From a virus (taxonomy: Duplodnaviria; Heunggongvirae; Uroviricota; Caudoviricetes): a DNA stretch of 26,513 nt. The stretch lies in IMG/VR virus record IMGVR_UViG_3300048593_000456, positions 1 to 26,513 of that record, one strand, 5' to 3'. Below are positions 20,751 to 25,695 of this stretch, one piece after another (within the stretch, counting starts at the first letter, position 1; each line of letters starts with the position of its first letter). The notes under the pieces are model-generated. The model had not been told where the DNA came from and searched no databases. It worked only from the letters and a program-made list of their open reading frames with translations. The translations under genes and the position numbers were made by a program.

Positions 20751-20884
20751 GGCGGCAACAGCCTTGAGCCAAGAGGCTATGAAGTTGCAGGGATCGTGGG
20801 TGTGATGGTGCATTGCAGGTCAGCGGAGAAATCTGTACCGGAGAGGCGTTGCCGGGGGAGTAGGTTCAATTCCTACACGGTCCT
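20751..20884 (+). ncRNA. tRNA-shaped ncRNA with 5' hairpin, 12-nt anticodon-position loop and long variable arm
   Basis: GGATCGT/ACGGTCC acceptor, GTAGG-TTCAATT-CCTAC T arm, GCAGG/TCTGT stem, CCGG/CCGG arm; own promoter, followed by a T-rich tract. Confidence 0.6.
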
Positions 20885-20919
20885 TTTTACTTTTTATTTT
20901 TACTCAGGAGAATAAAACA

Positions 20920-23479: not shown

Positions 23480-23696
23480 AACTAAAAAGAAAAAGCTTCG
23501 GGAAAAATCTGTATATCAAAAAGTCCTAAAAAGACGACAGAAGATTCGGGAAGATAACAGGTTAAAATATGTTTTAGGAAAACTTGCAAAGGAAACTGAA
23601 AAGTTGTCTGCTCCTAAAACTATGCTAAGAAAATATAAAATGGAATTGCTTGAAGAACGTAAAACAATTCCTGAAAACGGAGAAAAAAATAGTTGA
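23463..23696 (+). CDS. basic hypothetical protein (77 aa)
   Basis: AAGGG RBS; Lys/Arg-rich. Confidence 0.6.
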   Translation: MLTKHKTKKKKLREKSVYQKVLKRRQKIREDNRLKYVLGKLAKETEKLSAPKTMLRKYKMELLEERKTIPENGEKNS

Positions 23697-23720
23697 CAAA
23701 TCAAATCTGTGAACTATAAT
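23693..23720 (+). promoter_or_regulatory. promoter of the ncRNA-Ro60 operon
   Basis: TTGACA-N16-TATAAT. Confidence 0.85.
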
Positions 23721-23800
23721 AAAACAAAACAGGGATGAATGAAAAAGATTAACTGAATGCTTATCAAAAAACTCTTTTTCAACTTTTTGCCCGTTTTTAT

Positions 23801-23918
23801 TGTGAGATAGCTTAATGGTAGAGCACGTAAAACTCTTGTATACTTTTTTACTATGTACGATAATACAAGATTAACCACTGTTAATGGCGTTGTGTAGGTT
23901 CGATTCCTGCTCTCACAG
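23801..23918 (+). ncRNA. tRNA-Asn(GTT)-shaped RNA with 47-nt hairpin insertion (candidate Y-like RNA 1)
   Basis: TGTGAGA/TCTCACA-G73, D GCTT/GAGC, T GTAGG-TTCGATT-CCTGC. Removing 23828-23874 gives CGCCA-CT-GTT-AA-TGGCG. Insert stem TCTTGTAT/ATACAAGA. Confidence 0.8.
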
Positions 23919-23921
23919 CTT

Positions 23922-24037
23922 CCGCCTATGTTGTAATGGTAGCACAATAACTCAAGCATTGTTTTTTACTATGTACGTTTGATGTTTGATTAACTTTTTG
24001 GTGTAAAGCGGTCTAGGTTCGATTCCTAGTAGGCGGG
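23922..24037 (+). ncRNA. tRNA-shaped RNA (Gln-like scaffold) with hairpin insertion (candidate Y-like RNA 2)
   Basis: CCGCCTA/TAGGCGG-G73, D TTG-TAATGGTAG-CAC, T CTAGG-TTCGATT-CCTAG. Insert stem TCAAGCATTG/TGATGTTTGA with the same 16-nt loop as RNA 1. Confidence 0.75.
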
Positions 24038-24063
24038 CTACTTTTATTTATTGGAGAAATATT

Positions 24064-25638
24064 ATGACTTTTAAGTATTTGAATCAAAAAACTTCTGTTC
24101 AAAATCCTATCGCTGGCCGTAAAGAAATGGTTCAAACCAACGGCGGCGGTTACGCTTTCAAGATTGACCATCTTCAAATGCTTGACAGATTTTTGAGTCT
24201 CGGGGCCACCTCCGGTACTTATTATATGTCGAAAGAAAAAGTACAGTATACTAATACTGAAAACATTGTTTTGTGTATACAGTCTACTCCTAATGAAACA
24301 TTAGATAGAATCGTTGAAGTTTCCAGTAAGGGTCTTGCACATAAGAACGATCACGCTATTTACGCACTTGCGTTAGTTTTTGTTCATGGAAACAACTCTA
24401 TTAAAACTAGGGCCGTTGCGGAATTCAGCAAGGTTGTACGAACTGCTACTCACCTGTTTATGTTTTGTGCTTTCATTAAAGAAATGCGTGGTTTTGGCAA
24501 GCTTGTGCGTCAAGCCATCAACAATTGGTATGTATCAAAAGATACTAAGTCTTTTGCATATCAGGTTTCTAAGTATCAGCAACGTGATGGTTGGTCTCAC
24601 AAAGACGTATTTTGCCTGACTCACCCAAAGTTTGGTAAGACCACTAATATGAATAAAATTGCTAAGTGGGCTATGGGTAACTTGGATACTTCCAACCTAA
24701 AGCCCTCTGATGAAGGACTTGTTCTATGCAAGGCAGTTGATGATGCAAAACACATCAAAAACGCTAAAGAATTAGTAGATCATATCTCGAAGTATAAACT
24801 ACAGAGAGAACATATTCCTACTGAATTTTTGAATAAGCCTGAAATTCAAGAAGCTTTGCTTCCGCATATGAACGCTACGGCACTTATCAGAAGTCTTTCG
24901 GTAATGACTGCCAGCGGGCTTATCTCGCCACTGTCTAGCTCAACAAAGTATATTGTCGGCAGGCTAAATGATAAGGATTGGCTTAGAGGTCAAAGAATTC
25001 ATCCACTTTCTATTCTAGTCGCGAATAGAATTTATGGACAAGGCAGGGGCTTGAAAGGTTCGCTTACTTGGAATACAGATAGAAATATTTTGGACGCACT
25101 AGAAAATGCTTTTTATAATGCTTTTGATGCTATCCAGCCTACTAATAAGAATTATATGTATGGAATTGATGTTTCGGGTTCCATGAGTTTTAGTTTTAGC
25201 GACACGCCATTGCAATTCTGTGAAGTTGCGGCTGTTCTTGCAATGGCTCATGTACGCACAGAGCCTTGGACATTCGTTGGCGGTTTTGCGAGCAACTTTG
25301 TAGATTTAAAAATATCTAGCAAAGATACATTGAAGTCTGCTACTGAAAAATGCCTTAAGAATAATTTCGGATCGACTAATCCTTCCGCAGTTCTTTCTTA
25401 TGCCAAGCAAAATAAAATGGATGTTGATTGTTTCATAATTATCACAGATAACGAAGTTAATTCTGGTAATCACGTTTCGTCCGAACTTAAATCTAACTTT
25501 CCTAAGTCTAAGATGATTGTTTGCGGGCTTGCGGTAAATAACTTTAGCATTGCAGATCCTAAAAATCCTAACATGCTAGATATCGCTGGATTTTCCCCGG
25601 AAATTACCTCTGCGATTTCTTCGTTCACACGCTCTTGA
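24064..25638 (+). CDS. rsr: Ro60 / TROVE-vWA RNA-binding protein (Rsr homolog)
   Basis: 524 aa; N-terminal NGGGYAF...LDRFL.LG..SGTYY, KYQQRDGWSHKD, HPL, vWA MIDAS DVSGSM, ITDNE, NNFSIADP..P.MLD.AGF; GGAG RBS. Confidence 0.93.
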   Translation: MTFKYLNQKTSVQNPIAGRKEMVQTNGGGYAFKIDHLQMLDRFLSLGATSGTYYMSKEKVQYTNTENIVLCIQSTPNETLDRIVEVSSKGLAHKNDHAIYALALVFVHGNNSIKTRAVAEFSKVVRTATHLFMFCAFIKEMRGFGKLVRQAINNWYVSKDTKSFAYQVSKYQQRDGWSHKDVFCLTHPKFGKTTNMNKIAKWAMGNLDTSNLKPSDEGLVLCKAVDDAKHIKNAKELVDHISKYKLQREHIPTEFLNKPEIQEALLPHMNATALIRSLSVMTASGLISPLSSSTKYIVGRLNDKDWLRGQRIHPLSILVANRIYGQGRGLKGSLTWNTDRNILDALENAFYNAFDAIQPTNKNYMYGIDVSGSMSFSFSDTPLQFCEVAAVLAMAHVRTEPWTFVGGFASNFVDLKISSKDTLKSATEKCLKNNFGSTNPSAVLSYAKQNKMDVDCFIIITDNEVNSGNHVSSELKSNFPKSKMIVCGLAVNNFSIADPKNPNMLDIAGFSPEITSAISSFTRS

Positions 25639-25662
25639 CAAATGCTGATCTCGTGTTAAAAT
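25635..25662 (+). promoter_or_regulatory. sigma70-type promoter
   Basis: TTGACA-N16-TAAAAT, TG extended; the -35 contains the Ro60 stop codon. Confidence 0.75.
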
Positions 25663-25694
25663 AGCCAGAGAACAACTCTCTGGCTTTATTTTTT
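25663..25694 (+). terminator. Rho-independent terminator of the Ro60 operon
   Basis: AGCCAGAGA-ACAAC-TCTCTGGCT followed by a T-rich tract. Confidence 0.75.
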
Positions 25695-25695
25695 T

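Follow-up and report, generated by a model that had tools for sequence, protein, structure and literature searches.

Among the described Y RNAs, the class closest to the RNAs treated here is YrlA (RF02553; Chen et al. 2014, PMC4201824; 10.1101/312249). It is a circularly permuted version of a tRNA, in which the T arm precedes the D arm and a loop caps the acceptor stem; the 5' and 3' ends meet in the Ro60 helix, and this helix carries the binding motif GNCGAAN0-1G (PMC4201824). YrlA of M. smegmatis has a 7-bp acceptor stem; in vivo, it is cleaved by RNase P and receives a CCA tail (PMC4201824), which shows that a Y RNA can have a free tRNA-like end. The origin of YrlA is currently explained by a dimeric-tRNA model (10.1101/312249, which cites Sim and Wolin 2018). 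Yrn1 of Deinococcus radiodurans is a Ro60-bound Y RNA with some tRNA-like features, including a T-like arm 3' of a D-like region; its Ro60 helix is formed by the RNA ends, at the acceptor position (PMC4201824). In phages, Y RNAs have been reported from mycobacteriophages, CcrColossus and Bacillus phage G (PMC4201824) and from Thermus phage phiLo (Yrl1 and Yrl2; PMC12135203). Here we describe a locus in the first 26.5 kb (26,513 nucleotides, below called the window) of IMGVR_UViG_3300048593_000456, a 111.5-kb uncultured-virus record that is about 75% complete. Directly upstream of a phage Ro60 gene lie two RNAs, RNA1 and RNA2, that combine the modules of YrlA with the linear order of a tRNA. 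As judged from its sequence, the locus is quite probably a phage Ro60 ribonucleoprotein operon, with one promoter, three small RNAs (a leader that is a classical Y RNA, then RNA1 and RNA2 as unpermuted YrlAs) and finally Ro60.

RNA1 and RNA2 resemble YrlA in being encoded next to Ro60, in the same orientation, in having D and T arms that show the elbow nucleotides and an A15-U48 Levitt pair, and in the succession of a Ro60-strand motif, 8-9 nt, a GGUUAUC-type box, a small hairpin and the T arm, the module being placed at the same point of the anticodon stem. In contrast to YrlA, their acceptor stem is open and their Ro60 helix is closed by a loop; the motif in the window reads GUACGA or GUACGU, not GNCGAA, and the Rfam model gives no match. 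The M. smegmatis RNA is permuted and in two pieces after cleavage, whereas RNA1 and RNA2 would each be one piece with tRNA ends from the start. Unlike Yrn1, they have a normal acceptor stem and carry the Ro60 module at the anticodon position. They share with the reported phage Y RNAs the location directly upstream of Ro60, but those RNAs are all described with a 5'/3' terminal stem, and we confirm the classical order in phages Catera and Magritte. RNA1 and RNA2 thus fail the defining topology of YrlA and share its modules; the way of working is very probably shared as well. A full-text literature search, which was not exhaustive (two key reviews fell outside it), gave no paper describing a Y RNA in tRNA order, YrlA being presented only as permuted; there has been speculation that Y RNAs may be hidden among the tRNA genes of phages (PMC11482910, PMC12282133). 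RNA modules occurring in two circular orders are known from one-piece and two-piece (permuted) tmRNA and from the permuted tRNA genes of algae and archaea; as these are different RNAs with different partners, they offer an analogy only.

RNA1 occupies positions 23801-23918 (118 nt) and RNA2 positions 23922-24037 (116 nt), both on the plus strand. With 43.5 and 31.9 bits, respectively, they exceed the gathering score of the Rfam tRNA model (RF00005, 29 bits), and they score 130 and 110.7 bits with R1, a covariance model of tRNA-order units. The acceptor stem of RNA1 (23801-07/23911-17) is followed by a discriminator G (23918) and encloses a D arm (23810-24) and a T arm (23894-23910). RNA2 has an acceptor stem at 23922-28/24030-36, a 3-bp D stem that contains a U-C mismatch, and a T arm at 24013-29. 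The elbow nucleotides U8, A14, G18-G19, U54-U55-C56, A58 and A15/U48 can be read from the sequence. In the anticodon arm, the 13 nt foreseen by the model are replaced by 60 nt in the Rfam alignment of RNA1, with a similar picture for RNA2. Default ARAGORN calls neither RNA; with introns allowed, it reports RNA1 as a tRNA-Asn(gtt) with a 47-nt "intron", i(31,47), at 23828-23874. This insert contains most of a hairpin (23834-23875), the predicted Ro60 module, with a covarying 8-bp stem (23834-41/23863-70), an invariant apical element UUUUUUAC-UAU-GUACG (23844-59) and a GAUUAAC box (23869-75). The corresponding parts of RNA2 are a stem at 23952-61/23980-89, the apical element at 23962-77 and GAUUAAC at 23988-94. 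The stems of the two inserts differ in sequence yet pair, while the 16-nt apical element is identical and its hairpin is closed by a 3-nt loop. For single units, minimum-free-energy folding is not informative (z -0.8 and -1.3), so that the structure rests on comparison and not on energy. An exact scan of IMG/VR for the apical element returned 27 stretches, two of them known relatives; the others were taken as chance AT-rich matches. An earlier, sequence-only reading of this DNA had proposed two RNAs of these sizes and positions, with D and T arms, an acceptor stem closed by their own ends and an extra hairpin at the anticodon stem, all of which is confirmed.

The topology was examined in relatives gathered via the Ro60 protein: L002 and L003 (95-96% identity), L111 (83%), L113 (63%, with three units) and L034 (53%, with one unit, downstream of a normal tRNA-Val). 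In a MAFFT alignment of 11 units, 95.5% of the cells are paired, against about 45% in slid controls, and all seven acceptor pairs have changed on both sides. Among 19 distinct units, in an alignment fitted to the covariance model, pairing in the acceptor, D, T and insert helices reaches 97.8% (about 41-45% with the partner slid), with both-side changes in 21 of 24 pairs. The acceptor helix accounts for seven of seven such pairs, being 100% paired, and the insert stem for eight of eight. Paired fractions so far above the slid controls, together with the both-side changes, argue that the pairing in RNA1 and RNA2 is not due to chance. The 3' acceptor strand of RNA1 forms 7/7 pairs with its own 5' strand and at most 4/7 with any nearby downstream 7-mer; this strand (UCUCACA) and the 5' strand of RNA2 (CCGCCUA) are not complementary, and the acceptor stem of RNA2, CCGCCUA/UAGGCGG, pairs with itself and not with strands of RNA1. 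Furthermore, three loci (L034, L048 and L052) have a single unit, and in the 96% identical phage L002 a 192-nt insertion parts the two units and leaves them unchanged. Since acceptor pairing between RNA1 and RNA2 is lacking, and in view of the single-unit loci and of the spacer, each unit is a self-contained RNA. By these comparative criteria RNA1 and RNA2 are in tRNA order and not permuted like YrlA, as the sequence-only reading had held in calling them non-permuted, with tRNA-like ends.

The evidence on the nature of the insert comes from more distant units. R1 finds related units of 120-170 nt upstream of Ro60 genes that are only 36-44% identical. In the GC-richer of these relatives (Ro60 36-44% identical), the insert consists of CUUG, a helix strand, a short loop, the other helix strand, (C), YGA, 8-9 nt and GGUUAUC. 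Read against the YrlA motif, this insert is a canonical Y RNA site with its strands in reversed order and closed by a loop: at the motif site the distant tRNA-order units have GCCGAAG, compared with GUACGAU and GUACGUU in the window units and with the YrlA consensus GNCGAAN0-1G. The blocks follow each other as in YrlA, namely the (C/U)GA strand, 8-9 nt, a GGUUAUC-like box, the distal anticodon hairpin and the T arm. The 8-9 nt gap between (C/U)GA and GGUUAUC and the gap of about 21-22 nt between GGUUAUC and the T arm (range 14-32) are found in the window units and in most others, in both topologies. The controls, Catera (a mycobacteriophage) and Magritte (a Microbacterium phage), have classical Y RNAs in tandem, and the stem between the 5' and 3' ends covaries from one unit to the next. 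Each of these RNAs starts with a Ro60 strand, followed by GGUUAYC, a small hairpin, the T arm, the acceptor hairpin, the D arm and the other Ro60 strand. A second covariance model, R2, made from the 3' halves of tRNA-order units only, matches permuted YrlAs over its full length with 37-57 bits (Catera 46.9 bits, E 7e-9), and ordinary tRNAs only over positions 30-67, the T-arm half, with 20-32 bits. The insertion point is likewise common to both topologies, lying between positions 28 and 29 of the anticodon stem in RNA1, in distant units and in Catera YrlA, and one step earlier (26/27) in RNA2. On the strength of blocks, spacing and model matches, the insert of RNA1 and RNA2 and the module by which YrlA binds Ro60 are homologous, the difference being that a loop, and not the RNA ends, closes the insert. 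The earlier reading of these RNAs as candidates for a new architecture among Y RNAs, with a relation to YrlA, gains support from the same data. In the Magritte locus (OR553905.1; L116:2437-2513), the annotation of a tRNA-Arg(tct) is probably mistaken: the gene overlaps with a permuted YrlA, in the region of its anticodon-like hairpin, T arm and acceptor hairpin.

Without the 47-nt insert, RNA1 becomes a perfect 71-nt cloverleaf with the stem CGCCA/UGGCG and the loop CUGUUAA. The anticodon stem of RNA1-type units, and of many distant ones, is split, with pairs 27-28/42-43 outside the insert and pairs 29-31/39-41 inside; in RNA1 the outer pairs are CG (23826-27) with CG (23888-89), and the distal stem-loop lies at 23875-23887. 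Split-stem units have a 7-nt loop of the form N-U-NNN-A-A and outer pairs that covary (CG/CG, CU/AG, GC/GU); the split stem is the best of several possible parses and thus somewhat favourable to the arrangement. Catera YrlA shows the same arrangement, and the "V hairpin" of YrlA, judged by sequence, looks like a distal anticodon stem-loop. For the small hairpin that follows the insert, the split anticodon stem was preferred to a reading as a variable-arm-like stem. The anticodon loops of the sequence-only reading hold for RNA1, where the loop is canonical on a split 2+3 bp stem; RNA2 has instead a 7-nt loop, UUGGUGU, on a 4-bp stem (23994-24008) that lies wholly 3' of the insert, and among relatives this loop has 7 or 8 nt. 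A canonical tRNA would have a continuous anticodon stem, a 7-nt loop and a constant anticodon; here the insert splits or displaces the stem and the triplet drifts. In phages with 83-96% identical Ro60 proteins, the GUU of the window is replaced by GCU (L002), the loop has 8 nt (L003) or the stem is mispaired (L111). As the triplet drifts among such close relatives, and as the genome has a normal tRNA-Asn(GTT) at position 49654-49727, RNA1 and RNA2 probably do not decode.

The surrounding operon has the order that the sequence-only reading had given it, with promoter, two RNAs, Ro60 26 nt further on and terminator at the coordinates proposed. A sigma-70-type promoter, TTGACA-16-TATAAT (23693-23720, plus strand), matches the consensus at 12 of 12 positions and is kept in L002, L003 and L111. 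The Ro60 open reading frame (24064-25638, plus strand, 524 aa) starts 26 nt past the end of RNA2 on the same strand, behind the ribosome-binding site GGAG (24053-24056), and an intrinsic terminator with a 9-bp stem, five G-C pairs and a T-run follows at 25663-25695 (plus strand). The protein consists of a TROVE ring (PF05731, 7.8e-33) and a vWA domain (vWA_Ro60, PF25045, 1.7e-36), and it matches end to end the structures of Xenopus Ro60 (1YVP, 5.5e-83) and Deinococcus Rsr (2NVO, 1.2e-72). The block KYxQRxGWSHKD...H187 is conserved, as are the MIDAS serines of the vWA domain in DVSGSM; an H187S mutant of Ro60 has lost Y RNA binding (PMC11277228). By its domains and conserved residues, the product is a bona fide Ro60. 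Megablast of the region against GenBank phages gave no match, the closest cultured-phage Ro60 is 36% identical, and the phage DnaE is less than 30% identical to that of any GenBank phage. A second, near-consensus promoter, TTGACA-16-TAAAAT with TG (25635-25662; 11/12 matches), lies across the Ro60 stop codon and extends right up to the start of the terminator hairpin; transcripts from there would start inside the hairpin and escape termination.

Between the promoter and RNA1 lies a third small RNA, the leader (23727-23800, plus strand, 74 nt), identified by comparative pairing. Its 5' GGG-A-UGA (23732-23738) pairs with its 3' UUG-CCC (23787-23792) around an inner 9-bp stem (23740-23748/23773-23781) whose loop starts with UUAAC, and its 3' tail is U-rich. 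In eight copies from five phages, 95% of the cells are paired, against 48-63% when slid, with four pairs changed on both sides, and thermodynamic folds agree with the comparative structure. One copy in L113 has the exact YrlA motif GNCGAANG, present as GACGAAUG; the window leader has GAUGAAUG at this site (C to U). From this pairing and motif, the leader looks like a small Y RNA in classical order. The sequence-only reading had rightly noticed two RNAs, but missed both the leader and the occurrence of the topology well beyond this phage. A second leader-type Y-like RNA is found ahead of Ro60 in L034 (L034:2399-2500; Ro60 53% identical), where an apical element also stands alone (UUUUUUUAC-UUUU-GUACGAA), directly before an AAGGAG ribosome-binding site; there, Ro60 might repress its own translation.

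To follow the spread of the topology, T arms preceded by a GGUUAUC-type box were collected by a script, and a unit was assigned to the tRNA order if the acceptor 3' strand paired 7/7 with an upstream strand accompanied by a D arm, and to the permuted order if it did so with a downstream strand. Tested in this way, 81 phage Ro60 loci contain 16 tRNA-order units (11 loci) and 37 permuted ones (22 loci); for 80 bacterial loci the figures are 12 (11 loci) and 62 (38 loci). In phages, an upstream acceptor strand and D arm are observed for 18 T arms, compared with a mean of 2.5 and a maximum of 7 when acceptor strands are swapped among T arms. Clear bacterial examples of tRNA order are found in Chloroflexota (L129, L173, L191), Thermoguttaceae (L123) and Armatimonadota (L142). 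The 205-nt matches of the L035 type, initially candidates for tRNA-order units with two modules, turned out under a stricter script to be mostly permuted tandem units. In five Chloroflexota loci (L130:1973-2078, L129:2190-2303, L150:2164-2268, L170:1475-1594 and L140:2194-2314), rsr is directly preceded by an RNA in which an acceptor stem and a T arm are combined with a closed hairpin of the Ro60 type (CUUGACCGG...CCGGGCCGG, then GGUUAUC), the D arm being absent. Going by its elements, this RNA is a "minihelix" variant of the tRNA-order design.

Several observations weigh against the proposed Ro60 operon with tRNA-order Y RNAs. The apical element of the window is AT-rich and degenerate, contains no literal match to GNCGAAN0-1G and is without the bulged nucleotide of the canonical site; because of these departures, recognition by Ro60 in the window would follow from the homologues. 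The Rfam YrlA model does not match at E<=10 in 23650-24150. This silence is as expected if the order differs; the YrlAs of Catera and Magritte, at 36 bits, also stay below the gathering score of 69 bits. The pair counts from the 19 units are affected by the fitting of their alignment to the model. In bacteria the enrichment is weak, with 18 observed against a swap mean of 8.3 and a maximum of 16 in a control that related loci inflate, so that the bacterial claim rests on the individual clear examples. Strict co-transcription is not conserved either: the 192-nt insertion of L002 (L002:2664-2858, same as L031) holds a promoter-like site TTGCAG...TATAAT between the units, and L111 has about 100 extra nucleotides with a terminator-like hairpin and T-run between RNA2 and Ro60 (L111:2373-2500), so that in this 83%-identical relative the RNAs and Ro60 may be partly uncoupled. 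A freshwater metatranscriptome contains a 2439-nt contig that covers 23600-25019, is L002-like with the 192-nt spacer and extends into DNA upstream of the promoter; as an assembled contig that includes this DNA, it shows neither transcription nor RNA ends. Further RNA libraries yielded short or foreign pieces only.

Other explanations of RNA1 and RNA2 have to be set against these data. They might be genes for a decoding tRNA-Asn (GUU) and tRNA-Thr (GGU) with a short intron, removed for instance by cleavage and a phage ligase or repair system; the perfect cloverleaf left by removal of 23828-23874 and the ARAGORN call would then be explained. However, the insert lies within the stem (28/29 in RNA1, 26/27 in RNA2) and not at 37/38, the site of known short tRNA introns, and we know of no bacterial enzyme that splices at a within-stem site. 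It is moreover the most conserved part of the RNAs and bears the blocks common to YrlA, while the GCU triplet, 8-nt loops and mispaired stem of close relatives, the mismatch in the D stem of RNA2 and the presence of a normal tRNA-Asn(GTT) all speak against decoding. We regard removable introns as very unlikely. Alternatively, a classical permuted YrlA could span the junction between the units, running from an end inside the first insert through the T arm of RNA1, a closed hairpin in the role of the "acceptor" and then the D arm of RNA2 to an end inside the second insert. Chen et al. have cautioned that tandem tRNAs can mimic YrlA (PMC4201824), the tandem array of Magritte pairs fairly well in both registers, and the identical apical elements of RNA1 and RNA2 would permit cross-pairing there by sequence alone. 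Yet the acceptor strands that would have to form the hairpin are not complementary, the lower insert stems cross-pair at 5/8 positions as opposed to 8/8 within a unit, and the single-unit loci and the spacer of L002 are incompatible with such a structure; RF02553 also gives no match in the window, although it detects the actinophage YrlAs at 36 bits. A junction-spanning YrlA therefore seems extremely improbable.

It could also be imagined that RNA1 and RNA2 are tRNA mimics linked to Ro60 in the genome only, their conserved hairpin being recognised by a different factor, for example an anticodon nuclease of the host, a modification enzyme or some other protein of the phage. This would suit the departure of the window apical element from the canonical site and the behaviour of the loop, which keeps U33 and A37-A38 while the triplet changes fast, like an arms-race decoy; a Ro60-like phage gene has also been linked, in the PhageMaP preprint, to escape from the Ppl defence system (PMC11482910). 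But the module of the GC-richer relatives is a textbook Ro60 site and is encoded together with Ro60, in the same orientation, in phages and bacteria alike, and the leader of the very operon carries a classical helix, so that a reader other than Ro60 appears unlikely.

For the operon reading, a mode of action can be proposed, in which the single transcript, its processing, the binding of Ro60 and the effector are all inferred. One transcript would carry the leader, RNA1, RNA2 and Ro60. Host RNase P, with the cleavage of M. smegmatis YrlA as precedent, would cut 5' of each acceptor stem and free the upstream RNA, at RNA1 generating the U-rich 3' end of the leader, and host enzymes would trim the 3' ends and possibly add CCA, which is encoded by no tRNA of the phage. 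Ro60 would dock on the apical element of RNA1 and RNA2 and on the terminal helix of the leader, while the tRNA body could offer a handle to an effector that binds tRNA, the likeliest candidates being host exoribonucleases, PNPase among them, or RNA-repair enzymes. Such an effector has been suggested for YrlA and shown for other Y RNAs: PNPase tethering has precedents in Deinococcus (PMC4201824) and in phiLo, whose Ro60-Yrl complex binds the host PNPase in vitro (PMC12135203). The Ro60-like phage gene active against Ppl defence is a further precedent (PMC11482910). Of the enzymes named in the sequence-only reading, neither RtcB (PF01139) nor a CCA-adding enzyme (PolyA_pol, PF01743) was found in the 111.5-kb record, which at about 75% completeness does not establish their absence.

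A widespread tRNA-order version with the Ro60 module at the same stem position provides a concrete candidate for an ancestor or intermediate of YrlA. It is possible, though not likely, that tRNA-order Y RNAs, made from a tRNA and a Ro60 hairpin in its anticodon stem, are ancestral, and that permuted YrlA arose from tandem arrays of them through shifted transcript boundaries and not from two ordinary tRNAs. The topology also suggests why searches with permuted models, which in addition discarded tandem tRNA-like matches (PMC4201824), have left some Ro60 genes without a partner RNA. For annotation, genes of this type pass tRNA models and risk being labelled as tRNA or pseudo-tRNA. A one-piece RNA with free tRNA ends is a means to ask what the tRNA half of a Y RNA binds. 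Given the open acceptor end and the anticodon-like loop, tRNA-order Y RNAs could receive a CCA tail or even an amino acid; phages might use them to bring Ro60 to tRNA-handling machines or as decoys, guarded by Ro60, for anticodon nucleases of the host.

Two further RNAs outside the operon may be mentioned. About 1.4 kb upstream of the Ro60 operon, L034 has a permuted tmRNA gene of the two-piece type (L034:794-1083; RF04321, 66.6 bits), which may hint at the host group. In the window itself, ARAGORN with introns allowed reports a tRNA-Leu(caa) carrying a 7-nt insertion at 20790-20885, which is another non-canonical tRNA-shaped RNA.

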